From positions 3,173 through 67,172 of the forward strand of contig JANJTX010000151.1 of the NCBI GenBank assembly GCA_024710875.1: a DNA stretch of 64,000 nt. Direction: 5' to 3'. The notes beneath the pieces were generated by a model, which ran no database searches, was not told the DNA's origin, and worked only from the letters and a program-made list of their open reading frames with translations. A program made the position numbers and the translations under genes. The stretch comes from Anaerolineales bacterium (GTDB lineage Bacteria > Chloroflexota > Anaerolineae > Anaerolineales > UBA11579). Below are positions 27,923 through 58,985 of the stretch, piece by piece (position 1 is the first letter of the stretch; each line of letters opens with the position of its first letter).

Positions 27923-27972
27923 AGCGCTGCGCTCCTTGCCAGTGTGCGGCGATTATACAGGACAAGCCCCGC

Positions 27973-30356: not shown

Positions 30357-30398
30357 GGATTAGTATACAGGAATCCGGCGGAGGGTCGGTAGCCAGTG

Positions 30399-31202
30399 TC
30401 AGAACAAGCTGGCGTAGTCCACCTTGTCAAAGACAGTCAGCTTGCCACCCACCGTCGCATCCAGCACCTGCCGCCCGGCCCGCACATAGGCCTGGCGCGC
30501 CATGCGGTAGCCGATTTCCGAAGTCTCCAGGTCCGGCAGTTGCCAGCGGAAGCCTTTGCCAAAGTAGCTGGCATGGAAATGGTCGGGGTCATCACCCGCC
30601 GAGGTGATGGTGGTGTTGGGCGTGCCCCGGGTGGCGAAGTTATGGTCCACGCCAATCAGAATCACCTGTTGAAAGCCCATGTGAAAGGCCAGTTGCAGGG
30701 CCACATAAGTAACGGTCGCCCCTTCCCACAGGCGGCCGCGCGCATCCCGGGCGAACTTAGGGCCGATGTAGGTGGTGTGCAGAAAAGAAGTGTACTCATC
30801 CAGCCCGACCCACTCACGGGCGCGCCAGGTCAGGAACTTGGGCATGTTGAGGGCCGCGATTTCAGCGGCGGTCTGTTGAATGACAAGGTCATTAACCGAC
30901 ACGAAGAAAGAGGTTTCAAAGCCCCAATCTTGAAAGGCCAGATAAATCCGGTTGAGGCCAAAGGTGTATTCGTTTTCCAGTTTGCTGACATCGGTGTGTT
31001 TCAAGCTCGGCCCGTTGCCGATGATGAAACAGCGTTCTCCTGCAAAAAGGTCTTTTTGTTCTCCCAGCCGCCGGATGCTGGCGCGCCGCCACGGGTGAAA
31101 AGTCGCCTGCGGCCACTGGCGGGCATGCAACAACCCCAGATAGGCCGCCCGGCCAGCCCGCCACACGAGTTCCGGGGTGAGTTGCTTCAGCCGGTTGCGC
31201 AT
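30399..31202 (-). CDS. DUF115 / MptE-like protein with GT42 (Cst-type sialyltransferase)-like motifs
   Basis: FIIGNGPSLKHTDVSKLENEYTFGLNRIYL parallels the recalled Campylobacter Cst-II N-terminus IIAGNGPSLKEIDYSRLPNDFDVFRCNQFYF. The later MGFQQVILIGVDHNF parallels LGYKEIYLSGIDFY. Confidence 0.65.
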   Translation of the reverse strand: MRNRLKQLTPELVWRAGRAAYLGLLHARQWPQATFHPWRRASIRRLGEQKDLFAGERCFIIGNGPSLKHTDVSKLENEYTFGLNRIYLAFQDWGFETSFFVSVNDLVIQQTAAEIAALNMPKFLTWRAREWVGLDEYTSFLHTTYIGPKFARDARGRLWEGATVTYVALQLAFHMGFQQVILIGVDHNFATRGTPNTTITSAGDDPDHFHASYFGKGFRWQLPDLETSEIGYRMARQAYVRAGRQVLDATVGGKLTVFDKVDYASLF

Positions 31203-31207
31203 GCCCG

Positions 31208-31972
31208 TTACTCGGTACTTAAGCGAGTGGTGGCCCCGCCATCCACCACCAGCGGCTGGCCGGTCATGAAGGACGATTGTTCGTTATCGGCGAGGAAATA
31301 AATCCCACGGGCGATTTCATCCGGCGTGCCAATCCGGCCGATGACGGTACGCGCCGCCAGGGCGTCCAGCCGGTCTTCTACGCTGGCGCTGCCAAAGGTA
31401 CTGCGCTTCACCCCGCCGCGTAGCATTTTGGTATCCACCGCGCCAGGCAAAATGGCGTTGGCGCGCACGCCATCCGGGGCGAACTCAATCGCCATGGCAC
31501 GCGTCAGGGCCAGCAGTGCGCCCTTGCTGGCGGCATAGGCTGCTACTTCAGCGCTGGTGGCAACCGCGTGCACCGATGCCACATTCACCACCGCCCCGCC
31601 GGCGGCTTTGAGCAGCGGGTAGGCTGCTTTGGTACACAGAAACGGCGCCCGTAGATTGACGGCCATGAGGGCTTCCCACTCTTCCAGTGAGGTATCGACC
31701 AGTTTTTTACCCAATCCTACGGCCGCGTTATTCACCAACGCATCCAGCGATTTGGTTGCGCGCTTCACCTGCTTGAAAATCACTTGGATGTCTTCGGGTT
31801 TGGCGATGTCCTGCTTGATGAATAGGCCGCTGGCCGGGAAGCCTTTACCGAACTGAATGCGGTCCACCCCAAACACCCGCCAGCCCTGGGCGGCGAAATG
31901 CAAGACCGTGGCGCGGCCAATACCGCCGGCCGCCCCGGTAATCAGTACGGTGCGCGGTGGGCTGGCGGTCAT
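31208..31972 (-). CDS. Short-chain dehydrogenase/reductase (SDR)
   Basis: The TGAAGGIGRAT cofactor motif, NNAAV, and the catalytic Y-x3-K (YAASKGAL) are present. The start is set at MTASPP, giving an ATGA overlap with the upstream gene. Confidence 0.85.
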   Translation of the reverse strand: MTASPPRTVLITGAAGGIGRATVLHFAAQGWRVFGVDRIQFGKGFPASGLFIKQDIAKPEDIQVIFKQVKRATKSLDALVNNAAVGLGKKLVDTSLEEWEALMAVNLRAPFLCTKAAYPLLKAAGGAVVNVASVHAVATSAEVAAYAASKGALLALTRAMAIEFAPDGVRANAILPGAVDTKMLRGGVKRSTFGSASVEDRLDALAARTVIGRIGTPDEIARGIYFLADNEQSSFMTGQPLVVDGGATTRLSTE

Positions 31973-32940
31973 TTCTGGTTGACCCATGTGTCCAAATCCG
32001 GATGGGGAATGTCCAGGCCCTGCAAGAGGTTGCGGATGGAATTCCAATGCACCGCTTCCCACGCCCGCGGGCTGGAGTTGGCGTTGTGGGGAGCCAGCAT
32101 GACATTGTCCATCGTCAGCAGGGGGCTGTCTTTGGGTAATGGTTCGTATTCAAAGACATCCAGCGCCGCCCCGCCGAGGTGGCTGCTTTGCAGGGCGGCT
32201 ATCAAGGCCGGCTCATCCACCAGCGGGCCACGCGCGGCGTTAATCACCACCGCGCCGGGCTTCATCTGGGCCAGCGTCTCGGCGTTCACGATGTGGCGGC
32301 TGGTGGGATTGAGGTCGCAGGTGAGGGCGACAAAGTCAGCCCCCGCCAGTAGATTTTCGAGCGAGGTCATTTCCACGCCGACTTCGGCCACAAAAGCCGG
32401 GTCAATGTCAATAATATCGGTGCCGAGCAGGGTCATGCCAAAGGCCTGCGCCCGCCGCAACGCAGCCTTGCCGATGTTGCCCACCCCCACCACGCCCAGC
32501 GTGCACTCGCCCAGGCTGTGGCCAGCGATTTTCTGCCACTCGCCGCGCTTCATGGCCGCATCCATCCACGGCTGGCGGCGGGCAAAGGCCAGCATGTAGC
32601 CCAGAATGGTATCGGCCACCGGGATGGTGAAGGCATTGGGGGTATTGCCCACCAGCACGCCGTTGGCGTTGGCAAAGGCCTTATCAATCGAGTCGATTCC
32701 TGTGCCCCACTTGGAGATCACTTTGAGGCGCGGTAGGCAGGCCTGAATGACTTCCGGGGTGTAGCGGTCATCGCCGCAGATGGTGCCGTCAAACTGCCCG
32801 GCATAAGCCAGCAGGTCGGCGGCTTCCATGCGTTCTTCCACGGCTGGCACAAGTACCTCGAGCCCGTAATAATCAAAAACGGGCTGAAAGCGTTCCCGAA
32901 AGGGAATCATGTAGGGGGCGGTCAGGAGGACGGTGGGCAT
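31969..32940 (-). CDS. D-isomer-specific 2-hydroxyacid dehydrogenase family protein
   Basis: The NAD motif GVVGVGNIGKAALRRAQAFGM is present. The catalytic-region sequences ARGPLVDE and PHNANSS are also present. Confidence 0.85.
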   Translation of the reverse strand: MPTVLLTAPYMIPFRERFQPVFDYYGLEVLVPAVEERMEAADLLAYAGQFDGTICGDDRYTPEVIQACLPRLKVISKWGTGIDSIDKAFANANGVLVGNTPNAFTIPVADTILGYMLAFARRQPWMDAAMKRGEWQKIAGHSLGECTLGVVGVGNIGKAALRRAQAFGMTLLGTDIIDIDPAFVAEVGVEMTSLENLLAGADFVALTCDLNPTSRHIVNAETLAQMKPGAVVINAARGPLVDEPALIAALQSSHLGGAALDVFEYEPLPKDSPLLTMDNVMLAPHNANSSPRAWEAVHWNSIRNLLQGLDIPHPDLDTWVNQK

Positions 32941-32970
32941 GGCGGGATTCTAACAGAGCGCGGGGCGTAG

Positions 32971-33684
32971 TTACCCGCCCCTGATTCGCTCCAGCATCAT
33001 GTACTCAGCCACTTTGAAATCCAGTTCCTCATCAATATCCACCGCTTCGTCGCGCGGGATTTCAAACATGCGCGGCCGCGCCCCAAGGCGGTGGTTACGC
33101 GCCACCAGATTTTCACGCGTGAAAATGTAAATGCAGGAGTTTTCTTCGTAAATCGGGGGGAGGTCCTGGGTGCGCAGCAGTTCGCCCGGGTTGTGGTTCA
33201 CCGCTTGCCCGGCCGCATCATACAGCCGGGTTTGTAGGCGCGTGACAGAGAACAGCGAATCGTATTCGGCCCGCCCGGCCAGAAAAGCCTGGATCGCGCC
33301 GGAAATCGTCTCGGCTTTCAGCAGCGGATTGGTGCTGTGGGTTTGCAGGTAATAGTCGCTCGGGAATGCGGCGGTGTCATGCAGCAGGATGTCGTTCATC
33401 GGGATCATGCCATCCCGCAGGTGTTCGGGGCGCAGCAGGCGTTGCACCTGTGGGTATTCTTTTTCAAGGCCTTCCAGAATCACCGGGCTATCAGTATCCA
33501 CCACCACCCGCGTAACCTCCGCGCAGGCCAGCAGGGCTTCCAGAATGTGCTGGTATAGCGGTTTGCCCGCCAACGGGCGGTAGTTTTTGCCCGGTACCCG
33601 CTCCGAGGAGTGGCGCATGGGCAGCAGGGCGGTAAGGGTGGGTGTCGCTTGGGTCACGTCTGGCTCCGCATATTCTCTCGCCAT
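32971..33684 (-). CDS. Cytidylyltransferase (NeuA/SpsF-like family), paralog 2, divergent N-terminal motif
   Basis: LLPMRHSSERVPGKNYRPLAGKPL is a P-x-R-x-x-S-x-R-x-P-x-K-N variant. The start is set at MAREYAE, because the upstream 67 codons of the track ORF look non-coding. Confidence 0.7.
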   Translation of the reverse strand: MAREYAEPDVTQATPTLTALLPMRHSSERVPGKNYRPLAGKPLYQHILEALLACAEVTRVVVDTDSPVILEGLEKEYPQVQRLLRPEHLRDGMIPMNDILLHDTAAFPSDYYLQTHSTNPLLKAETISGAIQAFLAGRAEYDSLFSVTRLQTRLYDAAGQAVNHNPGELLRTQDLPPIYEENSCIYIFTRENLVARNHRLGARPRMFEIPRDEAVDIDEELDFKVAEYMMLERIRGG

Positions 33685-33772
33685 TATACGGGAAAGCCTT
33701 CGGCAAAGGGACAACCATGCCGGATTTATGGGACATCTGCCCCTGCTCGCGTCTGTCCGCTGGGTTGACAAT

Positions 33773-33792
33773 ATATTCAGGAATTTGAATAT
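33773..33792. promoter_or_regulatory. ArsR/SmtB-type operator candidate
   Basis: ATATTCA-ggaatt-TGAATAT is a perfect 7-bp inverted repeat. It overlaps the arsR-family start codon and sits just downstream of a TTGACA hexamer at 33765-33770. Confidence 0.55.
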
Positions 33793-34153
33793 GAAACCCC
33801 CGAGCTTTGAATCCGCCGCCAGCCACACCCTGCAAGCCTTGCGCCAGCCCTTCCGCATCCGACTTTTGCGCGCCATTGGCAGCAACGAATGCTGTGTGTG
33901 CCATCTGGAGGCTCAATTGGGCCAGCGTCAGGCTTACATCTCTCAACACCTGATGGCGTTACGGGCGGCGGGTTTGCTGCGGGCACGGCGGCGCGGCAAG
34001 TTTGTGTATTACCGGCTGGCAAAACCAGCCGTGCTGGACCTACTGGAAGCCGCTGCCGCTTTGGGCGGAATAGAAGTGGAGCCGCTTCCGCTGTTGCCAG
34101 CACAAGAAGACTGCGCCTGTGCAGCCTGTCAGACATCTATAGAAGACAGATAG
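33791..34153 (+). CDS. ArsR/SmtB family metalloregulator
   Basis: The helix-turn-helix region ECCVCHLEAQLGQRQAYISQHLMALRAAGLL is an ELCVCDL-like metal site. A C-terminal Cys cluster CACAAC is also present. Confidence 0.85.
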   Translation: MKPPSFESAASHTLQALRQPFRIRLLRAIGSNECCVCHLEAQLGQRQAYISQHLMALRAAGLLRARRRGKFVYYRLAKPAVLDLLEAAAALGGIEVEPLPLLPAQEDCACAACQTSIEDR

Positions 34154-35758: not shown

Positions 35759-36859
35759 ATGCCCGCCCAACTTCCGCTGGACCAGATACTGCAAGGCGAT
35801 TGCATCCAGACGCTGGCCGATTTACCGGCTGAAAGCGTGGACCTCGTCTTTGCTGACCCACCCTATAACCTTCAACTCCAAAACGACCTCTACCGCCCCA
35901 ACCGCACCAAGGTCAGCGCGGTGGACGATGCCTGGGACCAGTTCGCCGACTTTGCCGCCTACGACGACTTCACCCGCGCCTGGCTGGCAGCCTGCCGCCG
36001 GGTGCTCAAACCCAGCGGGGCGTTGTGGGTCATCGGCACTTATCACAACATCCACCGCATTGGCGCGCTGTTGCAGGACCTCGACTTCTGGCTATTGAAC
36101 TCGATTGTGTGGGTCAAAACCAACCCCATGCCGAATTTTCGCGGGGTGCGCTTTACCAACGCCCATGAAACCCTGCTGTGGGCGCAAAAAGAGCGCGGCG
36201 CGCCCTACACGTTTCACCACCACGCCATGAAGGGGCTGAATGACGACAAGCAGATGCGCAGCGATTGGGAAATCCCACTGTGCAGCGGAGCCGAGCGCAT
36301 CAAAATCAACGGCGAACGCGCCCACTCAACCCAGAAACCGGAAGCCCTGCTCTACCGGGTGATTCTCGCCAGCACCCACCCGGGCGATGTGATTCTGGAC
36401 CCGTTTTTTGGCAGCGGTACAACCGGCGCAGTCGCCAAAAAACTGCGCCGCCATTGGATTGGCATAGAACGCGACCCGGCCTATATCGAAGTCGCCCGGG
36501 CGCGCATCGCCGCCATCCCGACCCCCACAACAGCAGACACCCTGTTTGCCACGCCCAACCCGCGCAAACTGCCGCGCCTGCCCTTTGGCCGCCTGCTGGA
36601 AGCCGGGCTGCTGCAACCCGGCCAGAAACTCTTCCTTAGAAAATCTGGAGAGATTTTTGCGCAGGTACGCGCCGACGGGTTGCTGGAGTACAATCAGCAG
36701 CGCGCCTCGATTCACGCTCTGGCACGCGACCTCGCCAACGGCCCGGCCAATGGCTGGGAAGTCTGGCACTACGAGCAGGACGGCCAGCGTTACCCGATTG
36801 ACCGCCTGCGCCAGCAGTTGCGCCAGCAGGATTCTGAAATCAAAAACTCTATTTCATAA
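35759..36859 (+). CDS. Beta-class N6-adenine DNA methyltransferase, CcrM-like, no adjacent endonuclease
   Basis: Motif IV (FADPPYN) precedes motif I (DPFFGSGTTGAVA). The length of about 366 aa includes a C-terminal extension (RLPFGRLLEAGLL...) as in CcrM-type enzymes. Confidence 0.85.
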   Translation: MPAQLPLDQILQGDCIQTLADLPAESVDLVFADPPYNLQLQNDLYRPNRTKVSAVDDAWDQFADFAAYDDFTRAWLAACRRVLKPSGALWVIGTYHNIHRIGALLQDLDFWLLNSIVWVKTNPMPNFRGVRFTNAHETLLWAQKERGAPYTFHHHAMKGLNDDKQMRSDWEIPLCSGAERIKINGERAHSTQKPEALLYRVILASTHPGDVILDPFFGSGTTGAVAKKLRRHWIGIERDPAYIEVARARIAAIPTPTTADTLFATPNPRKLPRLPFGRLLEAGLLQPGQKLFLRKSGEIFAQVRADGLLEYNQQRASIHALARDLANGPANGWEVWHYEQDGQRYPIDRLRQQLRQQDSEIKNSIS

Positions 36860-48590: not shown

Positions 48591-49559
48591 CTATCCGGAT
48601 CTCTCTTGCGGCTTCTGGTTCTGGGCCAGCGCCACCATACCGCTCAAGCCACCCAGGTTCATCGTGTCCACCGCGCTGGAAGGCACAATCACCAATGCGC
48701 CTTTTTCTTTCAGGCCTTCAAAGAGCATGTTCATCGCCCGCAGGTGCAGGGCGGTCGGGTTGTTGATGTAGGCCTCCGAGGCGGTCGCGAAGGAGTGTGC
48801 AATCTGTTCTTCCGATTCACCCAAAATCACGCGCGCCTGGCGTTCGCGTTCGGCCTGGGCCTGGCGCGACATGGCATCTTCCAGATCCTTGGGGATGACG
48901 ATATCCCGGATTTCCACCGACTGCACGCTCACGCCCCAGGGGGTGGTGCGCTCATCGATGATTTTCTGCAGGTCGGCATCCATCTTGGCCCGCCCGGCCA
49001 GTACATCCGCCAGCATCAGCGAACCAATCACTTCGCGCAGGGCGGTCTGCGAAGCCCAGGTGATGGCGGTGCGGTAGTTCTCCACTTCGAGGGCGGCCTT
49101 TTCGGCATCCCACACCACCCAGAACAGCACCGCATCTACATCCACCGGCACCGTGTCTTTGGTGAGGGTTTTCTCGGCGCTGAAGGGCGAGACCATCACG
49201 CGGTGGTCAATCCATTCGGTCGCCACATCCACAATCGGGATGAGCCAGAACACGCCCGGCCCTTTCAACCCGTGGAACTTGCCAAACCGCAGCACCACGG
49301 CTTTCTCCCACTGGTTGGCGACCTTGAGTGAGAACAGCACATAGATGGCCGCCAGCACCCACACCGCCAGCCAGGCAAAGATGGCGAAGTCCGAGGCGTT
49401 CAGACTGACATCCATATAGATGGTGCCGAGGGTGGCGATGAGAAAACCCACCGTGGCCAGAGTGGCCGAGAGGCCATTCAGCCGCTGCGGGTTATTGTCC
49501 ACGCCGAAGTTCTTCAAACGCTGGTCAAAAATTTTGTTGATGCTCATGTCATTCTCCAT
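48591..49559 (-). CDS. SPFH/band-7 (stomatin-like) membrane protein
   Basis: An N-terminal TM hairpin is followed by the SPFH core (VVLRFGKFHGLKGPGVFWLIPIVD ... TKDTVPVDVDAVLFW) and a coiled-coil QAERERQARV. Confidence 0.85.
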   Translation of the reverse strand: MENDMSINKIFDQRLKNFGVDNNPQRLNGLSATLATVGFLIATLGTIYMDVSLNASDFAIFAWLAVWVLAAIYVLFSLKVANQWEKAVVLRFGKFHGLKGPGVFWLIPIVDVATEWIDHRVMVSPFSAEKTLTKDTVPVDVDAVLFWVVWDAEKAALEVENYRTAITWASQTALREVIGSLMLADVLAGRAKMDADLQKIIDERTTPWGVSVQSVEIRDIVIPKDLEDAMSRQAQAERERQARVILGESEEQIAHSFATASEAYINNPTALHLRAMNMLFEGLKEKGALVIVPSSAVDTMNLGGLSGMVALAQNQKPQERSG

Positions 49560-49983
49560 TAGTGGATATTTCAGGTTCGTCGCTGGCGGCCGGGTGACCT
49601 TCGGCCTCCCAGCTGGCTAACGCCTGTTCAAAGGCGGCCCGCGCCTCGGCCGGGCTGAAATTCAAACGATCGGCCTCGACCGCATAAATTTGTGCCAGCC
49701 GCGTCAGACTGCGCTGGCGCAGGCGGGCGGTCTCTTCTACTGAAACGGGCTCCAGGATAAATGTGCCGCGCCCATGCTGGGTGGAGATGATGCCTTCTTC
49801 ATCCATCAGGCGGTAGGCGCGTGCCACAGTGTTGAAATTCACCCGCAGGTCGGCGGCCAGTTGGCGCACGGTCGGCAGTTGGTGGCCGGGCTGCAACTCC
49901 CCGGTGGCGATGGCATGCTTGATCTGGTCCATCAACTGGATGTAAATGGGGACGTGGGTGGTGAAGTCAATGTCAAAGTTCAT
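49549..49983 (-). CDS. GntR family transcriptional regulator, short YtrA-like subtype
   Basis: The winged HTH reads IYIQLMDQIKHAIATGELQPGHQLPTVRQLAADLRVNFNTVARAYRLMDEEGII. The C-terminal domain is short (144 aa total). The start is set at MNFDIDF, because the track ORF extension is low-complexity. Confidence 0.85.
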   Translation of the reverse strand: MNFDIDFTTHVPIYIQLMDQIKHAIATGELQPGHQLPTVRQLAADLRVNFNTVARAYRLMDEEGIISTQHGRGTFILEPVSVEETARLRQRSLTRLAQIYAVEADRLNFSPAEARAAFEQALASWEAEGHPAASDEPEISTNGE

Positions 49984-50134
49984 CTGTTTCGTCCTGTTTG
50001 TATCATTGTTTGTTTGTATGATTGTATATTTGTTGGATTGTTTTGTCAAGCGCGCTCCCGGGCCTGGATTCGGGCCGTACGGGCGGGTAAAATCGGGTAT
50101 CCTATAGCGGCTGTATCTATCCCCTTTCAAGGAC

Positions 50135-50800
50135 TTGTGTGTGACTGACCCCTGGCATTCTTACAATGAATTTATGCTCACCGGTGAGGCTGAACGCTTC
50201 ACCAAGCTCTTTGCCCGCTACGAACTCTTCAAGCAGGTGCTGGAGCTGCCCGGCGACATCGTCGAGTGCGGCGTATTGAAAGGCACCGGCCTGTTCCTGT
50301 GGGCGCGACTGCTCGAAATCTACTCGCCGCGCTCCAAGCGCAAAGTGGTGGGGTTTGATACCTTTGCCGGCTACCCCGCCGATACCAGTCTGGAGGTGGA
50401 CCGCCAGACCGGGCAGGAATACAAACGCCAGCAAATTCAGGATCCGGCCGATGTCAGCCGCGAGCGGTTGCTGCAAACCGCCGAATCGCTCGGCCTCTCG
50501 CACCGCATTGAACTGATTCCCGGCAACGCCACCCAGACCATCCCGCAGTATGTGGCCAGCCAGCCCGGCTTCCGCATCGCCCTGCTGGACCTGGACTTTG
50601 TGCTCTACGACCCCACCAAAACCGCCCTCGAAACCTTCTACCCGCTGGTGGTGCCGCACGGCATCATCGTCTTTGATGAGTATGCCGTCTCCGGCATGGG
50701 CGAATCAGACGCGGTGGATGAGTACTTCAAGGACAAGTCGGTGGTCTTCAACCAGTTCACCTGGGCCGCCAGCCCGACCGCCTACTGCGTGAAACCATGA
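50135..50800 (+). CDS. TylF/MycF-like SAM-dependent O-methyltransferase
   Basis: GDIVECGVLKGTGLFLWA, GFDTFAGYP, and LLDLDFVLYDPTKTALETFYPLVVPHGIIVFDEY resemble the macrocin-O-methyltransferase family. The start codon is uncertain: TTG at 50135, GTG at 50141 and ATG at 50174 are all possible. Confidence 0.7.
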   Translation: MCVTDPWHSYNEFMLTGEAERFTKLFARYELFKQVLELPGDIVECGVLKGTGLFLWARLLEIYSPRSKRKVVGFDTFAGYPADTSLEVDRQTGQEYKRQQIQDPADVSRERLLQTAESLGLSHRIELIPGNATQTIPQYVASQPGFRIALLDLDFVLYDPTKTALETFYPLVVPHGIIVFDEYAVSGMGESDAVDEYFKDKSVVFNQFTWAASPTAYCVKP

Positions 50801-51723
50801 TCGATCAGGAAGCCAAACTCAAGCGCATCGCCGCTCTGGGCTTTGACTATGAGGCCCAGCCCAAAGAGCACCAGACCGCCTGTAACCTGTGCGGCGAAAC
50901 CCGCCTGGTGGTCATTACGCACCAAGACCGCTACGGCTACCCAGCACCCGCCAATACCTGCTGGCGCTGTGGCCTGACCTTCATTAACCCGCGCATGACC
51001 GCCAGCGCTTACGAAGCGTTCTATGGCGGCACGTACCGCCCGCTGGTCAGCGCCTACCACGGCCGCGACATCAACGCTCAATCGATTCAGGCCGAGCAAC
51101 TCACCTACACCATCGAGCGCGAGGCCTTCCTCACGCCGTTTCTGGCCGGGCGGGCGGTCCGTACCATGCTGGATATCGGCGGCTCGACCGGCGTGGTGGC
51201 CGAGCGCTTAGCCCAAACCTACAACCTGACTGCCACCGTGCTGGACCCCTCGCCGGATGAACTGGAAGAAGCCCGCCGCCGCGGCCTGGAGACCATCACC
51301 GGCCTGGTGGAAGATGCCGACTTCGGCCAGCAGCAGTTTGACTTCGTCATCCTGTGCCAGACGATTGACCACCTGCTGGATATTCGCGGCACGTTGGCGA
51401 AAATCCGCCAGTTGCTGGCCCCCGAAGGCCTGTTCTTTGTGGACATCGTCGATTTCCGGGCCGCCTATCTGCGGCACTGGCGCATCAATGAAGCCCTCAA
51501 AATCGACCATCCCTATTACCTCACCCAGGCGACCGCCGAGGCCTACCTGGCCCGCGCCGGCTTTGACATCCTCGGCAAGGCCTACGCCGCCGACCATCTG
51601 CACATCTCCTACCTGTGCGCCGCCGGCACGCCGGACCCGGCCGCCCTGCCCAGCCCGGAGAGTGTGAACGAGCAACTGCACGAAATCCGCACCGTCCAGA
51701 ACACCGGCCACCGGTGGGCGTAA
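50797..51723 (+). CDS. Class I SAM-dependent methyltransferase with N-terminal Cys4 zinc ribbon
   Basis: CNLCGE...CWRCG is the zinc ribbon. SAM motif I reads MLDIGGSTGVVAERL, and an acidic loop VLDPS follows. It overlaps the upstream gene by 4 nt. Confidence 0.8.
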   Translation: MIDQEAKLKRIAALGFDYEAQPKEHQTACNLCGETRLVVITHQDRYGYPAPANTCWRCGLTFINPRMTASAYEAFYGGTYRPLVSAYHGRDINAQSIQAEQLTYTIEREAFLTPFLAGRAVRTMLDIGGSTGVVAERLAQTYNLTATVLDPSPDELEEARRRGLETITGLVEDADFGQQQFDFVILCQTIDHLLDIRGTLAKIRQLLAPEGLFFVDIVDFRAAYLRHWRINEALKIDHPYYLTQATAEAYLARAGFDILGKAYAADHLHISYLCAAGTPDPAALPSPESVNEQLHEIRTVQNTGHRWA

Positions 51724-51724
51724 G

Positions 51725-51774
51725 TAGTTGGCCGCAAGTTGTTAGCATTTGAAATGCACTCGAACGGCCAACTA
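51725..51774. other. 10-bp-stem hairpin in an AT-richer 138-bp spacer inside the plus-strand glycan cluster
   Basis: TAGTTGGCCG ... CGGCCAACTA has perfect arms and a 30-nt loop. The loop itself contains GCATTTGAAATGC. There is no U-run. Confidence 0.4.
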
Positions 51775-51861
51775 TTAAAAGTAGTCATTGGGAATCTATG
51801 AGTGCAAACATGCTGAAATTTGAGGACAACATGCCTAAAGACTTTCGGTGGACTACTTAGC

Positions 51862-52560
51862 ATGACCGCGGTGTTGGGGCTCATCCCGGCCCGCGGTGGC
51901 TCCAAGGGCATCCCGGGCAAGAACATCCGCCCGCTGGCGGGCAAACCCCTGCTGGCCTACACCGCCGAAGCAGCCCGCGCCAGCGGCGTGCTTGACCGCC
52001 TGATTCTCTCTACGGATGCCGAAGACATTGCCGCGGTGGGCCGCTCCGCCGGGCTGGAGGTGCCGTTCATACGCCCGCCCGAACTGGCCGCCGATGACAC
52101 CCCGATGCTGGCCGTCATCCAACATGCGCTGGCATACCTCGCCACTGAAGGCTACACCCCGGAGATCATTGTGCTGCTCCAACCGACTTCGCCGCTGCGC
52201 ACCCCGCAACACATCCGCACCGCGGTGGCCGAACTGCAATCCCGCGACGTAGATAGCGTGGCGAGCGTGGTGGCGGTACCGGCGGTGTATTCGCCGTATT
52301 ATGTAATGAAGATAGAAGATGACCGCCTGTTGAATTTTCTACCGGGCGGCCAGCAATACACCCGCCGCCAGGACGCCCCGCCGGCCTACTGCCGGGATGG
52401 CACGGTCTATGCCTTCTGGCGCAAGACTCTGGAAGAAAAAGGCAGTATTTACGGCGATAGCTGCTGGCCGCTGATTCTTGCGGAAGATGAATCCATCACG
52501 GTGGATACCCTTGCGGACTGGCAAAAGGCCGAGGATCGGCTCGCCCGTTTTTCTGGCTGA
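51862..52560 (+). CDS. CMP-sugar cytidylyltransferase (NeuA family), paralog 3
   Basis: The canonical N-terminus reads IPARGGSKGIPGKNIRPLAGKPLLAYT, with a later LQPTSPLR motif. Confidence 0.85.
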   Translation: MTAVLGLIPARGGSKGIPGKNIRPLAGKPLLAYTAEAARASGVLDRLILSTDAEDIAAVGRSAGLEVPFIRPPELAADDTPMLAVIQHALAYLATEGYTPEIIVLLQPTSPLRTPQHIRTAVAELQSRDVDSVASVVAVPAVYSPYYVMKIEDDRLLNFLPGGQQYTRRQDAPPAYCRDGTVYAFWRKTLEEKGSIYGDSCWPLILAEDESITVDTLADWQKAEDRLARFSG

Positions 52561-52569
52561 TTTGACCCG

Positions 52570-53871
52570 ATGAAAAAACCATTGCGATTCGGTTTTCTGG
52601 TTTATCGCACTCCAGTCTTGAAGACGATGGGAGTTTTGATAGATGCTTGTCTGAATCAGGGACTGGACGTGTACATTTTCTATTCTGGCGAAACATCAGA
52701 TCCCGGCAAGAGCTACCAAAACGCAACCCCGGCAAATATTCCCCGCTTTCCAGATCGCCAACCCCAGTATGTGGCTTGCCAGCCGCATGAAATCAGTCTG
52801 CTGGCGGCTGAATATCGCCTCGACGCATTCATCACCCATGAGGGCTATCACACCCTGCAGGGCTTCGGCCAGTTGGAGAGCGTTCGCACCCTGCGCCAGC
52901 AAGGCACGGCTGTCTTTTCGCTGACCCATTTCTTTGAGGTCTCGCGCCTGCCGCTGGAAGCCCTCGACCACTTTGACCTGACCTTCTTCATGAGCGAGTT
53001 TGGCATCGAGCTGATGTTTGACCTCAACGCCGCCACCCCAGCCGAGCGCGCCCACTACCGGCCGCGCATGGCCACCGCCGGTTCGCCAACCTTTGACCAG
53101 CTCGCGGGGTTGGATCAGACCGCCGCCCGCGCTCACTTCGGCCTGCCGCCCGACCGGCCAGTGGTGGTGCTGGCCGCCCCGGTGCTCTCGCCCGTGACCC
53201 TGTGGCGCTGGGTGGTGTGGCGCGAACCCGCCCTGCGCACCCGCCTGAAACGCGCTCTCAGCGCCCGCCGGCTGGACTTCCTGCCCCAGATTTTCAGCGG
53301 CCCGTCGTTTGAACGCTGTGTGGCGGCCGTGCGCGCCTTCTGCGACCGCCACAACGCCGTGCTGGTGGTCAAGTCGCGCCTCAAGCAAGACGACCCGCCC
53401 TACCTGATTGCCGCCGCCGACCATTATCTGGACGGCGCCGATGAAGAATATTATCCGCTTTTCACCATGTACCGCCTGCTGGCCGCCGCTGACCTGGTGG
53501 TGAGCGCCCAGAGCATGTCTTTGGTGGAGGCGGTGGCCGCCAACGTCCCGGCCGTCAATATCCATGTGCCTTTCCGCGAAATCGATGAACCCAGCCGCAG
53601 CACCTATGCCCGCTACCTGGAAGTGCTGCTCGGCAGCGCCCCGGACAGCCTGATGAACACCCCCGGTTGCATGTGGAGCCAGCCGTGGCAATCCTTCCCG
53701 CGCTGGCTGAACGGCAAAACGCTGGCCGACTTCCGGCTCGATTCAACCCGGGCCGATGAATACCGCCAGCACTATCTGGGCATGGAAGCCACCCCCAGCA
53801 GCCAGCGCATACTGGACACCATTCGCGACTACCTCAACACCCCTGTGGAGGCCCGCCATGCGCATGTCTGA
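52570..53871 (+). CDS. Hypothetical 433-aa protein, possible GT-B-like / capsule-type transferase
   Basis: I recognise no signature motif. The two-lobed alpha/beta-like pattern (FGFLVYR...VYIFYS; VVVLAAP...VLVVKSR...AADLVVSAQSMSLVEAVAANVPAVNI) is reminiscent of GT-B enzymes such as KpsS- or TagF-type transferases. This is inference only. Confidence 0.35.
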   Translation: MKKPLRFGFLVYRTPVLKTMGVLIDACLNQGLDVYIFYSGETSDPGKSYQNATPANIPRFPDRQPQYVACQPHEISLLAAEYRLDAFITHEGYHTLQGFGQLESVRTLRQQGTAVFSLTHFFEVSRLPLEALDHFDLTFFMSEFGIELMFDLNAATPAERAHYRPRMATAGSPTFDQLAGLDQTAARAHFGLPPDRPVVVLAAPVLSPVTLWRWVVWREPALRTRLKRALSARRLDFLPQIFSGPSFERCVAAVRAFCDRHNAVLVVKSRLKQDDPPYLIAAADHYLDGADEEYYPLFTMYRLLAAADLVVSAQSMSLVEAVAANVPAVNIHVPFREIDEPSRSTYARYLEVLLGSAPDSLMNTPGCMWSQPWQSFPRWLNGKTLADFRLDSTRADEYRQHYLGMEATPSSQRILDTIRDYLNTPVEARHAHV

Positions 53872-54760
53872 ACTCGGTTCCAGTCCGGCCGACCGCCGCC
53901 GGCGCTGGCGCAGTTGGCTAACCGCGCAACGACTGTGGGACGAGGACTTTGCCCCGGTTTTCATTTGCGGCGCCTCCGGCAGCGGCACGACCCTCATCGC
54001 CAGTCTGCTGAATCAGAACTATGAAGTCGGTCTGTACCTGAACGAAAGCGTGCGCATGCTGAACACCGGCCGCGACCTGTGGATGGACAAAGCCGATGAA
54101 TACCCGGATGTAAACGCCTATTACAACGCTCTCTTCATTCCCGCTCACCGCCCCCCGGCCGCCATCCGCCGCCAGTTGCTGCGGCTGTACCGCCGCGAAA
54201 TCATCTATCCCAAAACCAGCCCGGTAGTGATTGATAAAGGCCCAAACGCCCATCTGGTGCGTTTTGAATGGCTGCGCTCGGCTTTTCCAGCTGCCCGCTT
54301 TGTGTTCCTCTTCCGCCAGCCGGTCGAATCGGTTGAAGGTCTGCGCCGTAAGTGGAAGCAGGTGTTTGGCGGCTCACCCCTTACCGACCTGTGCGATTTC
54401 TGGCTTAATATGCATGAACGCTTTCTGGAAGATTCAGCCGACTACCGCGGGCAGGTCTACCCGCTGGCCTACGACACGCTGGTCGCCGACCCGCCCGCCA
54501 GCCTGGCCCGGGTGGCGGCCTTTGCCAGGCTCACGACCCGTCCCACCCCCCTGCCGCTGCCAGACCGCCCGGCCAAACCCGGCAAGGGCCTGCGCAATGT
54601 GGTGGATGGCAAAATTGTGGTGATGCCCGCTGCCCACCAGCGAGTGGACTCCAGCCTGACGCCTGAAGAAGAACTCCTGGTAGCCGAACGCCTGCTGCCG
54701 GCCTACACGCGTTACAAGCAAATCGAAGCCGCCTTTCTGGCCGGCCAGCCCCAGCCATGA
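53858..54760 (+). CDS. Sulfotransferase family protein
   Basis: Three sulfotransferase-like elements are present: a 5'-PSB loop FICGASGSGTTLIASLL, a 3'-PB-like FLFRQPVESVEGL, and a C-terminal LAYDTLVADPPASLARVAAFARL. The start is set at the ATG at 53858, overlapping the upstream gene by 14 nt. Confidence 0.75.
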   Translation: MRMSELGSSPADRRRRWRSWLTAQRLWDEDFAPVFICGASGSGTTLIASLLNQNYEVGLYLNESVRMLNTGRDLWMDKADEYPDVNAYYNALFIPAHRPPAAIRRQLLRLYRREIIYPKTSPVVIDKGPNAHLVRFEWLRSAFPAARFVFLFRQPVESVEGLRRKWKQVFGGSPLTDLCDFWLNMHERFLEDSADYRGQVYPLAYDTLVADPPASLARVAAFARLTTRPTPLPLPDRPAKPGKGLRNVVDGKIVVMPAAHQRVDSSLTPEEELLVAERLLPAYTRYKQIEAAFLAGQPQP

Positions 54761-55848
54761 GCCGCAAACCGCGCATCGCCTTTCTGCTGCAAATGTTCGG
54801 CGTGGGCGGCATGCCACAATGGCTGTACCGCCTGGCCGCCAGTCTGCGCGACGAGTTCGATTTCTACTTCATCGCCACCCACTCGGATTACATCCTGCCC
54901 GAATACCGGGCCGTCGCCCACACCGCCCACCTGCCCCCCAGCAAGTGGCGGCTGGCCGCCTGGCTGGCGCGCCACCAGATTGACCTGGTGCAGTTCGCCA
55001 ATCTGCGCCTGTATGCAGATGCCGCCCGGCTGGCGGGTGTCCCGGCGATTGTGGAGCGCACCGATGGCCTGCGCAACGGGGCCGCCCTCGGCCCAAAACA
55101 CGGTTTGGCAGCGGTGGTCGCCAGCACGCAGGGCACCATCCCGCACATTGCGCGCCTGATTGACCGCCAGAAAATCCACCTGATTTACAATGGCATTGAC
55201 CACGCCCATTACCAACAGGCCACCCCGGAGCGCTTTGGCTTTGCTCCCGAGGATGTGCTGATTGGCCGGACATCACGGCTGGCGGGCGGCAAGAACATCT
55301 CGCTGCTCATTCAGGCGGTACTGCGCCTGCGGGCCGAGCCGCGCCACGAGCACGTGCGGCTGGTCATCTGTGGCGGAGATAACACCGAACGCGGCGCACC
55401 GCCAATGCTGGCCGCCCTGCAGGCCGAGGCCGCCCCGCTGGGCGCGAGCGTGGTCTTCACCGGCGAAGTCGCCGACCCGGCCGCCATCACCGCCGGCTAT
55501 GACATCGCCACCTGCACCTCGCGCCCGGAAAACGAAGGCATCCCGAATTCGCTGCTGGAAGGCATGGCGGCCGGCAAGCCGCTGGTCGCCACCGCCGTGG
55601 GCGACATCCCCGAAATCCTCACCGAAGGCGATAACGGCCTGCTGGTACCCAGCGATGATTTGCCGGCTCTGACCGAAGCCCTGGCGCGCCTCATCGCCGA
55701 CCCGGCCCTGCGCCAGCAGATGGGCGCCGCCGGGCAGGCTCGCATTGCCCGTGACTTTGACCTCGCAGCCCAGGCCGAAAAATACGCTGCCCTCTACCGC
55801 CAGTTGCTGGCCGAACACGGCCGCTGGCCGCGCCGCGCCTGGCGCTAA
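54757..55848 (+). CDS. Glycosyltransferase family 4 (GT-B, group 1)
   Basis: The C-terminal E-x7-E-type region reads SRPENEGIPNSLLEGMAAGKPLVAT, followed by GLLVP. It overlaps the sulfotransferase gene by 4 nt. Confidence 0.85.
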   Translation: MSRKPRIAFLLQMFGVGGMPQWLYRLAASLRDEFDFYFIATHSDYILPEYRAVAHTAHLPPSKWRLAAWLARHQIDLVQFANLRLYADAARLAGVPAIVERTDGLRNGAALGPKHGLAAVVASTQGTIPHIARLIDRQKIHLIYNGIDHAHYQQATPERFGFAPEDVLIGRTSRLAGGKNISLLIQAVLRLRAEPRHEHVRLVICGGDNTERGAPPMLAALQAEAAPLGASVVFTGEVADPAAITAGYDIATCTSRPENEGIPNSLLEGMAAGKPLVATAVGDIPEILTEGDNGLLVPSDDLPALTEALARLIADPALRQQMGAAGQARIARDFDLAAQAEKYAALYRQLLAEHGRWPRRAWR

Positions 55849-55855
55849 CCCTCCC

Positions 55856-56452
55856 ATGCCGCCCCTCCCGCGCCGCTTTTACAACCGCCCCACGCTGGAA
55901 GTCGCCCGCGATCTGCTGGGGACGCGGCTGGTGCGCATCGAGAACGGCCAGCGCATCAGCGGCCTCATCCTTGAAACCGAAGCCTACTGCGGCGAAACCG
56001 ACCTCGGCTGCCACGCCAAAGCCGGCCTCACGAATCGCACCGCCCCGCTCTACGGCCCACCGGGCCACGCCTATGTGTATTTCACGTACGGCCATCACTG
56101 GCTGTTCAATGTGGTCACCCGCCCCGCCGGTGAGCCGGAAGCGGTTCTGGTTCGGGCGATCCTGCCGCTGGAAGGAATCGATGTCATCGAACAGCGGCGC
56201 GGCCAGCAACCGCGCCAACGCTGGACCGACGGCCCCGGCAAACTGGCCCAGGCCCTCGGCATCGATGGCCGCTTGAACACCCACAACCTCACCGCCCTGG
56301 ATGCCGAAGTCTTCATCGAACGCGCCCGCCCGCTGCCGGATGCTTTCGTAACCACCACGCCCCGCATCGGGTTATATACTGTGCCGGAGCCGTGGAAGAG
56401 CACCCCCTGGCGCTTTCTGGCGACCCTGCCGGAAAACTTCACAGTAGAATAA
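55856..56452 (+). CDS. mpg: DNA-3-methyladenine glycosylase (Mpg/AAG family)
   Basis: The protein reads FYNRPTLEVARDLLGTRLV, ETEAY, and AHAYVYFTYGHHWLFNVV. Confidence 0.9.
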   Translation: MPPLPRRFYNRPTLEVARDLLGTRLVRIENGQRISGLILETEAYCGETDLGCHAKAGLTNRTAPLYGPPGHAYVYFTYGHHWLFNVVTRPAGEPEAVLVRAILPLEGIDVIEQRRGQQPRQRWTDGPGKLAQALGIDGRLNTHNLTALDAEVFIERARPLPDAFVTTTPRIGLYTVPEPWKSTPWRFLATLPENFTVE

Positions 56453-56494
56453 GCCCGCACAATCGCAAGTCAGACCGACCCACAAGGAGCACGT

Positions 56495-57295
56495 ATGAAA
56501 CTCTTGGAAGGAAAAAACGCCCTCGTTTTTGGCGTGGCCAATAACCGCTCGATTGCCTGGGGCATCACCCAGGCCTTTCACCAACACGGCGCAAAGGTCG
56601 GCATTTCCTATGCCGGCGAGATGATGGAAAAACGCGCCCGCCCGCTGGGCGAATCGCTCGGGCTGGACTTCATCGAGCCCTGCGATGTCTCCAGCGATGC
56701 CGAGATTGAGGCGGTGGCCGCCAAAGCCAAAGCCCATTTCGGCCAGATTGACATCCTCGTGCATGCCATCGCCTTTGCCCCGCGCGAAGAACTAACCGGC
56801 GCCTTTTACACCACCAGCCGGGCCGGCTTCGCCACTGCTCTCGACATCAGCGTGTATTCTTTTATTGCGCTGGCGCGCGCCTTCCAGCCCCTGCTGCGGT
56901 CGGGCGGTTCCATGATGACGCTCTCGTACTACGCCGCCGAAAAGGTCGTACCGAATTACAACGTAATGGCGATTGCCAAGGCCGCCCTCGAGAACACCAC
57001 CCGCTACCTGGCGCGCGACTTTGGCCCGCAGGGTGTGCGCGTCAACGCCATTTCGGCCGGCCCCATCCGTACCCTGGCCGCCGCCGGCGTGGGCGGCTTC
57101 CGCGACCTCTACAAACGCTTTGCCGAGGTCTCGCCCATGCGTCAGGAAATCACGATTGAGGATGTCGGCGGCACGGCGGTGTACCTCGCCTCCGATCTCT
57201 CGGCCAAGACGACTGGCGAAATCATCTTTGTGGATGGCGGCTTCAACATCGTCGCCATTGCGGATGACATCGTTAGCGACGACAGCGCCGAATAA
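56495..57295 (+). CDS. fabI: Enoyl-[acyl-carrier-protein] reductase (NADH)
   Basis: The GVANNRSIAWGI motif and the Y-x6-K catalytic pair (YNVMAIAKAALE) are present in a 266-aa protein. Confidence 0.92.
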   Translation: MKLLEGKNALVFGVANNRSIAWGITQAFHQHGAKVGISYAGEMMEKRARPLGESLGLDFIEPCDVSSDAEIEAVAAKAKAHFGQIDILVHAIAFAPREELTGAFYTTSRAGFATALDISVYSFIALARAFQPLLRSGGSMMTLSYYAAEKVVPNYNVMAIAKAALENTTRYLARDFGPQGVRVNAISAGPIRTLAAAGVGGFRDLYKRFAEVSPMRQEITIEDVGGTAVYLASDLSAKTTGEIIFVDGGFNIVAIADDIVSDDSAE

Positions 57296-57313
57296 GACGA
57301 CCGAATGAATGCG

Positions 57314-57347
57314 CCGGGGCATGGCCAACGGTCATGCCCCGGTTTCT
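57314..57347 (+). terminator. Rho-independent terminator after fabI
   Basis: The CCGGGGCATG/CATGCCCCGG 10-bp stem is followed by TTTCT. Confidence 0.75.
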
Positions 57348-57383
57348 GTACTAGAATAGGGGGAATCGGAATGAGGAACTCGC

Positions 57384-57839
57384 ATGTTTCGTAAACGCAC
57401 AGACGCACAAACAACTACCGCCGCCCCGGCCAGCACGCCGGAACGCATCACCTCTGTACTGGGCGATGGCGTGGTCTTCCTCGGCAAAATCAGCGGGCGC
57501 GGCGGCGTGCGCATTGAAGGCGCGTTTGAAGGCGAAATCGCCCTCAACGGCACGCTGGTGGTTGGCACCACCGGGCGCGTGACCTGCCCGCATTTGCAGG
57601 CCCAGACCGTCATTGTGGCGGGTGCCCTGCGCGGCGACATCACCGCCGAGAAGGTCGAAATCCGCAGCACCGGCCGGGTGTGGGGTAACGTGACCACCGT
57701 GGCCTTCTCCACCGAAGAAGGCGCGTTCTTGCGCGGCCAAATTCAAATGGAAGAACAGGTAGAGCTGGACCTGCCTGAAACCGGAGATGCCAGCGTAGAA
57801 GCCCCGCCTCCGTTGAATGAAACCACTCCCTCTGCATAA
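57384..57839 (+). CDS. Bactofilin family cytoskeletal protein
   Basis: The beta-helical repeat pattern reads GKISGRGGVRIEGAFEGEIALNGTLVVGTTGRVTCPHLQAQTVIVAGALRGDITAEKVEIRSTGRVWGNV. Confidence 0.85.
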   Translation: MFRKRTDAQTTTAAPASTPERITSVLGDGVVFLGKISGRGGVRIEGAFEGEIALNGTLVVGTTGRVTCPHLQAQTVIVAGALRGDITAEKVEIRSTGRVWGNVTTVAFSTEEGAFLRGQIQMEEQVELDLPETGDASVEAPPPLNETTPSA

Positions 57840-57877: not shown

Positions 57878-57890
57878 TCGGATTGTGCGA

Positions 57891-58985
57891 TTATTGTTGG
57901 GCAATCACAATTGTCAGGCCCGTGCCGCTGGCCGCCGGCCCCGCAAACAGGGTGACAATCGCCCCGCTGCTACTGCTGAAAGTCAGCGTACCAACCGGCG
58001 GAAATACACTTTCGCTGGTCAGGGTATAGCCGAGCGCCGCCATTTCGGTCTTGTAGAATTCAATCACCAGTTCGAGGGACGAATCGGTTTCATAGGTCAT
58101 CAGGCCCGGCAGGGTGGTGAGGTTGCGGGCATCCGGCATGGCAGGGTACGGGGTGGCGCCCTCTTCGCCGGGCGGTGGGCAATCCGCCGGGGGCTGGATA
58201 TCAAACGCCTGACTGGCCGGGATGACATCCCACTGGTAGCGCACATCGCCCTCAAAGTTGCGATCGTTGGTCAGCACTTCGCTCACGCCCCGCCCGTTCA
58301 GCACCAACCGGATAATGGCGCCATCCGTCTGGCTGATGTACAGCGCCCCTTCTTCCAGGCTGCGCACTTCGCCGCCCGCCACGGTCGTGAGGTCTACGTT
58401 GTCCATCGTGATGGCGTAACGGTCAGTCAGCACGCCGTTAATCGTGACGCCGGTTTCCACCCGCTGGGCGGTGCCATGCAACAGGCCGCCGGTATCCATC
58501 ATGGCGTCGTAGGGATTTTGCTGTTCCGAGTTGGCGGTCACGATGCAGCCAAAGGAAGGCGAATAGAGATAGTCGGTTTCTTCGATGTCGGCCACTTCGA
58601 GCCATTCCAGCCCACCAGCAATGGCGAGGTCGTTGGGCTCAAACCGGAAATAGGAACGCGGCGGCAGTTGGTTGCGCTGGCCGTTCACCAGTACCTGCCG
58701 GAAATATTCGCTGCCGTCCGGGTTGGTCGCGGTGAAATTGAAATCCATCCGGACTTCATAAGCCGGACTGCTGGTTTCTTCGTACAATGCCGGGTCATCC
58801 AAGTTGAGTTCCTGCGGGTTGGGCGAATCTCCGCCGGGTGCGGCCGCCGGTGCGCCGCCAGAGTCTCCACTGGCATCTGTTTGAGCCGGTGCAGACGATT
58901 CGCCGCTTCCCGGCAGCGACACACCCGAACAGGCCAGGGCCGCCACGCCGAGGACCAGCAAAACCAGAAATAATCGCTTGTGCAT
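57891..58985 (-). CDS. Hypothetical lipoprotein
   Basis: LVLLVLGVAALAC reads as a lipobox. A Gly/Ser/Pro linker follows. I recognise no domain. Confidence 0.6.
   Translation of the reverse strand: MHKRLFLVLLVLGVAALACSGVSLPGSGESSAPAQTDASGDSGGAPAAAPGGDSPNPQELNLDDPALYEETSSPAYEVRMDFNFTATNPDGSEYFRQVLVNGQRNQLPPRSYFRFEPNDLAIAGGLEWLEVADIEETDYLYSPSFGCIVTANSEQQNPYDAMMDTGGLLHGTAQRVETGVTINGVLTDRYAITMDNVDLTTVAGGEVRSLEEGALYISQTDGAIIRLVLNGRGVSEVLTNDRNFEGDVRYQWDVIPASQAFDIQPPADCPPPGEEGATPYPAMPDARNLTTLPGLMTYETDSSLELVIEFYKTEMAALGYTLTSESVFPPVGTLTFSSSSGAIVTLFAGPAASGTGLTIVIAQQ

Follow-up and report, generated by a model that had tools for sequence, protein, structure and literature searches.

We describe here an unnamed protein family with the glycosyltransferase B (GT-B) fold, represented by P0001, a protein of 433 residues encoded from an ATG start at 52570..53871 on the forward strand of a 64,000-nucleotide stretch of DNA (hereafter the window) from an Anaerolineales metagenome-assembled genome (MAG; contig JANJTX010000151.1, positions 3,173 to 67,172). 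P0001 is a GT-B enzyme whose nucleotide-binding C-lobe is intact, and it is translationally coupled to an enzyme that makes a cytidine monophosphate (CMP)-activated nonulosonic acid. With moderate confidence we propose it as a candidate CMP-nonulosonate glycosyltransferase, cytoplasmic and metal-independent; from the fold, the conserved residues, an alignment with TarL and the gene neighborhood we infer its donor and acceptor, the roles of its residues and the stereochemistry of transfer.

Fold and conserved residues

An AlphaFold2 model of P0001, built from an alignment of 84 sequences, has a predicted local distance difference test (pLDDT) score of 96.3 and a predicted template modelling (pTM) score of 0.94. 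It consists of two alternating β/α (Rossmann-like) lobes with a cleft, the arrangement that marks the GT-B superfamily, and the top rows of a Foldseek search hold GT-B enzymes only (for example MshA at E 5.6e-11). The two-lobe Rossmann-like fold expected in a preliminary description of this gene is thus borne out. In structure P0001 is closest to the UDP-GlcNAc 2-epimerase/NeuC family, with scores of 22.6 both for NeuC (5zlr; root mean square deviation 3.7, 325 residues aligned) and for the Thermus UDP-GlcNAc 2-epimerase (1v4v), followed by BshA (6n1x, 20.0), TarL (8va1, 19.8), TagF (3l7i, 19.3), MurG (1f0k, 17.0), WaaA (2xci, 16.2) and polysialyltransferase (5wc6, 15.4). Polysialyltransferases (family GT38) and WaaA (GT30) are metal-independent enzymes of the GT-B fold with CMP-ulosonic acids as donors, and the activity that we propose for P0001 would belong to the same GT-B class.

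The residues conserved in at least 90% of an alignment of 122 family sequences are D136, G171, K268, R270, K272, P296, S315, E320 and G366; no histidine reaches this level in either the 84- or the 122-sequence alignment. Residue counts were also taken from 107 sequences of metagenome loci (described below), using only the sequences that cover each column; K268, R270 and K272 were preset in this set by the search pattern. Besides the positions in Table 1, position 212 is Trp in 85/95 and position 284 is Asp in 99/105 of these sequences.

S315 and E320 fall opposite ‘DYSSLIYE’ in TarL and ‘NSSSGLIEA’ in the NeuC-like proteins, and would provide the Ser/Gly loop at a helix N-terminus and the ribose-binding Glu that are typical of the nucleotide site in GT-B C-lobes. 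The preliminary description had quoted two segments, VLVVKSR (residues 264-270) and a second one spanning residues 306-331, and had read the C-terminal segment as part of a nucleotide-binding lobe. This reading agrees with our data, as the segment contains the conserved S315 and E320 that align with the nucleotide-binding Ser and Glu of TarL and the NeuC-like proteins.

Searched against the PDB, a profile of the 122 sequences matched TarL (8va1) at E 0.0082 over three collinear stretches. The first covers a G-x-P-x-x-D linker and the first C-lobe strand, where ‘vGsPelD’ and ‘kkvVlll’ of the profile correspond to ‘TGVPRTD...KKVILFAPTF’ of TarL. In the second, ‘alLvvKsRlK’ is aligned with ‘AVVLFKMHPFVK’ and ‘ihfyStavlEA’ with ‘ISDYSSLIYEY’, and the third pairs ‘flgfddgkaSerIl’ with ‘FKYQDGRSSERLV’, which carries a C-terminal DG-x-SS-x-R motif. 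Since ‘FKMHPF’ of TarL faces ‘vKsRlK’ of the profile, R270 occupies the position of the histidine in the TarL K-M-H-P motif, where the second C-lobe strand ends.

Relationship to named families

None of the Pfam and NCBIfam models matches P0001 at E<=0.01, in line with the earlier statement that it carries no recognizable signature, and no PDB sequence matches it at E<=10. When 84 family members were scanned singly against Pfam, 17/84 gave weak matches to PF04464 Glyphos_transf, the TagF-like family (best E 1.1e-6); others matched the GT4 N-domain (12), DUF6716 (11), DUF6365 (8), LpxB (4), the GT28 C-domain (4) and Epimerase_2 (PF02350; 4, best E 0.012). One member, P0112, passes the PF04464 cut-off (28.3 bits vs 22.1) and is the only one seen to do so; P0001 itself falls below the gathering score.

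The preliminary description had likened the C-lobe to KpsS/KpsC or TagF-like enzymes. The TagF-like half of this comparison stands, PF04464 being the nearest Pfam family by sequence, while nothing was found in favor of KpsS/KpsC: PF05159, the KpsS/KpsC family, is not among the 25 listed of the 35 families matched by the 84 members, and KpsC chains do not occur in the top 50 of either VIA structure list.

Comparison of the family profile by hhalign with six NeuC-like proteins from related loci gave 93.3% probability over 284 columns, which indicates remote homology only; R13 lies one column away from an invariant Arg of these proteins. A PseG-like identity was considered and rejected, the same comparison with 10 PseG-like neighbors giving just 37.8% probability over the C-terminal 110 columns.

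Gene neighborhood of the family

We scanned metagenome contigs with a back-translated pattern (F-C-D...A-x-L-[VI]-[VI]-K-S-R-x-K), which returned 105 stretches; the family hidden Markov model (HMM) confirmed 105/105 as family members. The 372 neighbors found in 77 of these loci were clustered, and 125 cluster representatives were compared with Pfam and 18 neighbor proteins with NCBIfam. Open reading frames (ORFs) were called in the loci by a crude, greedy selection of the longest ORF, and many opposite-strand neighbors without a family are probably not genes.

Within five genes of the family gene, the neighbors in the 77 loci comprise CTP_transf_3 cytidylyltransferases (29), GT4 glycosyltransferases (22), Methyltransf_11 (18), GFO/IDH/MocA oxidoreductases (12), NeuB (11), DegT/LegC-type aminotransferases (8) and polysaccharide deacetylases (8). 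One neighbor cluster was identified as PseG (TIGR03590, 177.7 bits vs a cut-off of 153.55) and another as NeuC (TIGR03568, 401.7 bits vs 235.9). PseB-type dehydratases, NeuD-type acetyltransferases, formyl- and carbamoyl-transferases, ABC exporters and flippases also recur.

At least one same-strand gene of nonulosonate biosynthesis, as called by our own HMMs, which were built from the neighbor clusters and run over every ORF, is present in 51 of the 55 metagenome loci that have 3 kb or more of flanking sequence. CTP_transf_3 occurs in 32 of these loci, the aminotransferase in 28, NeuB in 23, a PseG-like gene in 21 and a NeuC-like gene in 8. Either a PseG-like or a NeuC-like gene is found in 29/55 in canonical form, so that the GT-B hydrolase step of the pathway is already filled there.

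The direct upstream gene could be evaluated in 43 loci, where the contig includes the N-terminus of the family protein and extends for 900 nt or more upstream of it; loci that lack the N-terminus were left out, as were 19 others with too little upstream sequence. The direct upstream same-strand gene is CTP_transf_3 in 30 loci, NeuC-like in 8, NeuB in 2, PseG-like in 1 and unclassified in 2, and its end lies mostly -4 to +8 nt from the start of the family gene. De-replication at 90% identity leaves 36 groups, with CTP_transf_3 upstream in 25, NeuC-like in 6, NeuB in 2, PseG-like in 1 and another gene in 2; in the same order the numbers are 9, 4, 2, 1 and 2 for the 18 groups at 70% identity, and 2, 2, 2, 1 and 1 for the 8 groups at 50%. 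The family proteins of the evaluable loci are just 25-37% identical to P0001, and hence the gene-order association spans the family. Membership in the pathway of the cluster and a CMP-activated donor, both suggested in the preliminary description, are therefore supported by gene order in 41/43 evaluable loci.

Among the 125 neighbor representatives we found none of the transferase families for 3-deoxy-D-manno-octulosonic acid (Kdo) or nonulosonic acids (Maf, sialyltransferase, KpsS/C, TagB-type), the transferases present being GT4 and GT2 only. The same 125 contain no TagD-, IspD- or TarI-type cytidylyltransferase; one NTP_transferase is present.

Proposed function of P0001

The loci encode a complete pathway of the Pse/Leg/Neu type, and the one step without a candidate enzyme among their genes is transfer of the CMP-activated sugar. 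This gap, together with the coupling to the cytidylyltransferase gene and a precedent in Tannerella forsythia, is why we favor a CMP-nonulosonate transferase. P0001 would take a CMP-nonulosonic (sialic-acid-like) sugar from the cytidylyltransferase encoded just upstream and transfer it to a glycan acceptor, which the neighboring GT4 glycosyltransferase, sulfotransferase and methyltransferases would build or decorate. The C-lobe would hold CMP, with S315 at the helix N-terminus contacting the phosphate and E320 the ribose. The basic K268-S-R270-x-K272 loop may neutralize the phosphate, and perhaps the C1 carboxylate of the sugar, and would so stand in for the ‘HP’ histidine of TagF/TarL and of bacterial sialyltransferases. 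D136, which alone among the acidic residues of the N-lobe is widely conserved, would probably act as the general base and activate the acceptor hydroxyl.

The precedent is provided by Tanf_01245 and TFUB4_00887 of T. forsythia, transferases of pseudaminic and legionaminic acid (Pse/Leg) derivatives that are described as TagB-superfamily GT-B enzymes, supported by knock-outs and proposed to use CMP-nonulosonates (PMC5420450). They form the one class of glycan-directed Pse/Leg transferases with genetic support, and like P0001 they are GT-B proteins encoded with nonulosonate biosynthesis genes. Compared by description, they differ from the P0001 family in carrying DXD, D/E-D/E-G and HP motifs (PMC5420450), whereas the P0001 family has K-S-R-x-K in place of HP, and E-G (residues 91-92) in close relatives only. 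In the family, E91-G92 is invariant among the 8 closest sequences, with E-E-G in P0004 and P0008, and is not conserved more widely.

Several points weigh against a CMP-nonulosonate transferase. The histidines that TagF/TarL and the sialyltransferase-type ‘HP’ motif depend on are missing from the family. NeuB is absent from the operon in the window, all three NeuB genes of the genome being located on other contigs. The 105 metagenome loci all had to contain F-C-D...K-S-R-x-K and include many close kin, so that the sample is biased towards sequences that keep the motif. Finally, the neighbor labels come from our own HMMs, and just the cluster representatives were checked with Pfam or NCBIfam.

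Alternative functions

As the best structural match of P0001 is the UDP-GlcNAc 2-epimerase/NeuC family, a divergent enzyme of this type is a real rival, although we consider it unlikely. In that case P0001 would be a hydrolase or epimerase, and no transferase, that makes or remodels a nonulosonate precursor or acts on the CMP-sugar. Its place at the top of the structural ranking and the hhalign probability of 93% to the NeuC-like proteins speak for this. The sequence of the family argues the other way. P0001 has no match to the NeuC models (PF02350, TIGR03568), Epimerase_2 is matched by the few members given above with marginal E values, and epimerases are absent from both PDB profile searches at E<=10. 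We compared P0001 with the conserved acidic N-lobe residues that are catalytic in the epimerases: E91, E123 and E130 sit near the aligned positions of NeuC, but these are not kept family-wide (Asp or Glu in 40/73 at position 91 and in 56/74 at 123; Glu in 22/73 at 130), and a subgroup (P0010-P0014) has an 8-residue deletion in this segment. Furthermore, true NeuC and PseG homologs are present in the same loci (the 29/55 above), with a NeuC-like gene directly upstream of the family gene in 8/43.

A somewhat more doubtful alternative is that P0001 is an ordinary nucleoside diphosphate (NDP)-hexose glycosyltransferase of the GT-B class riding in nonulosonate clusters, which would use a UDP- or GDP-activated donor to add a neighboring sugar of the same glycan, perhaps with the nonulosonic acid itself as the acceptor. 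In 30/43 loci the family gene is tightly coupled to the stop of the cytidylyltransferase gene, usually with an overlap, which would be unexpected for an arbitrary transferase of the cluster, and other sugars already have their GT4 and GT2 enzymes in the loci. The E-x7-E signature of retaining GT4 enzymes is also absent from P0001, as the preliminary description had correctly noted: E320 is followed by AVAANVPA.

We regard as very unlikely that P0001 is a 2-epimerase-like enzyme shifted to CMP-nonulosonates, neither a transferase nor a classical epimerase. The Arg/Lys loop would then grip the phosphate of CMP and the carboxylate of the sugar, and an acid/base in the N-lobe would drive elimination of CMP across C2-C3. 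This would yield either a 2,3-dehydro nonulosonate or, after re-addition, a sugar of altered stereochemistry. Such an enzyme, if real, would add a new class of reaction to the bacterial metabolism of sialic-acid-like sugars.

The least probable reading, a true TagF/TagB-type phosphotransferase moving a polyol- or sugar-phosphate from a CDP-activated donor, we rate low because the histidines and the CDP-polyol genes are missing: PDB titles name mutated H444 and H548 in TagF and H300 in TarL (H444 and H300 being the catalytic histidines of the cleft), this family conserves no histidine at all, and R270 replaces that of the HP motif; activation by the neighboring gene product is of the CMP-ulosonate type (CTP_transf_3), and not by a CDP-glycerol or CDP-ribitol synthase, in keeping with the missing TagD/TarI-type genes noted above; and a search of 151 genomes of the phylum did not turn up PF04464, whose model P0001 does not match although it is the nearest.

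Gene boundaries in the window

The P0001 gene is real, given the 397 representative proteins that match it at E<=1e-3 and the high pLDDT of the model. A database copy, P0002, has 414 residues, the gene caller having chosen Met20. Family homologs begin with ‘MRxGF’, aligned to residues 5-9 of P0001, and the ATG at 52570 is therefore the better start. The TGA stop of the CTP_transf_3 gene at 52558-52560 leaves a 9-nt gap before the P0001 gene, where 10 nt had been given earlier; the 14-nt overlap with the sulfotransferase gene (ATG at 53858), reported alongside it, is exact. A promoter and terminator scan of 49500-57500 found no more sites than in shuffled sequences, and no promoter on the forward strand, and is thus uninformative on the limits of the operon.

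Table 1. Genes of the glycan row in the window and conserved sites of P0001 (L001 and L002, related MAG contigs; site counts from the locus sequences unless stated otherwise).
Feature	Coordinates	Strand	Evidence or remarks
TylF-like O-methyltransferase, first of operon-like row	50135..50800	+	PF05711 TylF, E 3.3e-19; 4-nt overlap with next gene; also in L001 and L002
Class I S-adenosylmethionine (SAM) methyltransferase	50797..51723	+	Methyltransf_23/12/11/25, E 1e-17 to 1e-13
CTP_transf_3 cytidylyltransferase (CMP-ulosonic acid synthetase type, PseF-like), 246 aa	51820..52560	+	PF02348, E 6.3e-27
P0001, unnamed GT-B family, candidate CMP-nonulosonate transferase	52570..53871	+	Fold, conserved residues, TarL alignment, gene order
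R13-x4-K18 loop after first N-lobe β-strand	52606..52623	+	R13 Arg in 66/67; position 18 Lys/Arg in 69/69
D136, sole widely conserved acidic N-lobe residue	52975..52977	+	At least 90% in 84- and 122-sequence alignments; Asp in 64/74
K268-S-R270-L-K272 motif, end of C-lobe strand 264-268	53371..53385	+	K268, R270 and K272 at least 90% in 122 sequences
S315...E320, N-terminus of helix 316-323	53512..53529	+	Ser in 105/105, Glu in 97/103
Sulfotransfer_3 sulfotransferase	53858..54760	+	PF13469, E 9.4e-18
GT4 glycosyltransferase, last of glycan row	54757..55848	+	Glyco_trans_1_4 E 1.1e-30; Glycos_transf_1 E 2.7e-26; same gene follows in L001 and L002

The row of genes in the window and in two related contigs

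The cytidylyltransferase of the window scores 164.2 bits against the PseF model TIGR03584, under its cut-off of 205.7. In the window the GT4 gene is followed by a methylpurine-DNA glycosylase gene and then FabI. A scan of genome contigs yielded at least two loci, on the MAG contigs L001 and L002, that carry the same row between the same flanking genes. The P0001 copy of L001 is 82% identical; an extra sulfotransferase gene (Sulfotransfer_1) stands between the cytidylyltransferase and the family gene, and the homologous sulfotransferase gene shows the identical 14-nt overlap with its neighbor. L002, with a copy 50% identical to P0001, additionally has NeuB immediately ahead of the cytidylyltransferase gene, as well as an ABC exporter and two further sulfotransferases. 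CTP_transf_3 is directly upstream of the family gene in the window and in L002.

In the stretch compared (48591-56452 in the window) the row is flanked by a Band_7 gene in the window and L002, accompanied by GntR in the window, and on the other side by the methylpurine-DNA glycosylase gene in all three genomes; FabI comes after the latter in the window and L001. The glycan row looks like a variable island at a fixed site, its content differing among the window, L001 and L002.

Upstream cytidylyltransferases of most soil-metagenome loci (for example L056:8271-9371, L073 and L043) were called as ORFs of about 430 aa, possibly over-extended at the N-terminus by the longest-ORF procedure. Their CTP_transf_3 part matches KdsB models weakly (about 70 bits), and they are usually preceded by a GFO/IDH/MocA oxidoreductase and methyltransferases. 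This is another subtype than the PseF-like enzyme of the window.

Size and distribution of the family

A word-indexed search returned 13 relatives of P0001, and an exhaustive search of 1.84 billion representatives returned 397 at E<=1e-3, 226 at E<=1e-10 and 36 at E<=1e-30. The ESM Atlas places P0001 beside an unnamed cluster of 889 members. The label ‘orphan’ given to the protein earlier does not hold, as it belongs to an unnamed family with hundreds of members. These come from soil, groundwater and marine metagenomes, and also from Anaerolineae and Bathyarchaeia MAGs. In the phylum of the source organism the family is sporadic: besides the source genome, which has a single copy, 1 of 400 genomes gives a match (partial, E 1.9e-11). 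One metagenome locus (L041:10539-12464) contains a second, weak family match (E 1.4e-9) directly downstream of the main family gene, which may be a tandem divergent paralog.

By language-model features the ESM Atlas also holds two clusters that are 100% viral (Uroviricota) with a score of 0.96 to P0001. A phage link of the family was rejected after a tblastn search of P0001 against 50,697 phage records and a search of viral_contigs with the DNA pattern both came back empty.

Other glycan genes of the window and source genome

By our own HMMs, a NeuC-like gene abuts NeuB on contig C30 of the 2.5-Mb source MAG, a CTP_transf_3 gene lies near NeuB on C90 and a GFO-type oxidoreductase gene near NeuB on C37, and more CTP_transf_3-like genes are found on C12 and C127. 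The organism invests heavily in sialic-acid-like sugars. Another glycan cluster of the window, on the reverse strand (24788-33885), encodes a Polysacc_synt flippase, a Sulfotransfer_3 protein, two CTP_transf_3 proteins, a GT2 enzyme, a PMT_2 protein (GT-C type), an MptE-like/DUF115 protein, a short-chain dehydrogenase/reductase and a D-2-hydroxyacid dehydrogenase. MptE-like/DUF115 is the family of the Maf flagellin nonulosonate transferases. The window as a whole thus holds three CTP_transf_3 genes, two sulfotransferase genes and two different types of candidate nonulosonate transferase.

Elsewhere in the window, mirror-image ORFs of 362 aa (forward) and 364 aa (reverse) occupy 57885-58985, neither with a Pfam match at E<=0.01, and a fusion of a DNA methylase (N6_N4_Mtase) with a RAMA domain lies alone at 35759-36859 between a permease gene and an M3 peptidase gene.

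Significance

PMC5420450 points out how few transferases are known for pseudaminic, legionaminic and related nonulosonic acids, and PMC6137143 states that for protein glycosylation a legionaminic acid transferase had yet to be identified. In the accessible portions of the literature on pseudaminic and legionaminic acid transferases and on nonulosonate and TagF glycosyltransferases, Maf and the Tannerella enzymes appear and a description of the present family was not found. The fold and the general chemistry are already known; what is new is a family, unnamed in Pfam and NCBIfam, without the histidine motifs of its nearest relatives.

The role that we propose for the family is one with few known enzymes. 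If P0001 is a transferase, the family would exemplify GT-B enzymes that act on a CMP-sugar with no need of the HP histidine, would add to the enzyme set for chemoenzymatic synthesis, and would be a marker by which nonulosonate-decorated glycans could be recognized among uncultured bacteria and archaea. The glycan of the source organism would then also carry sulfate and methyl groups, which is unusual for bacteria.

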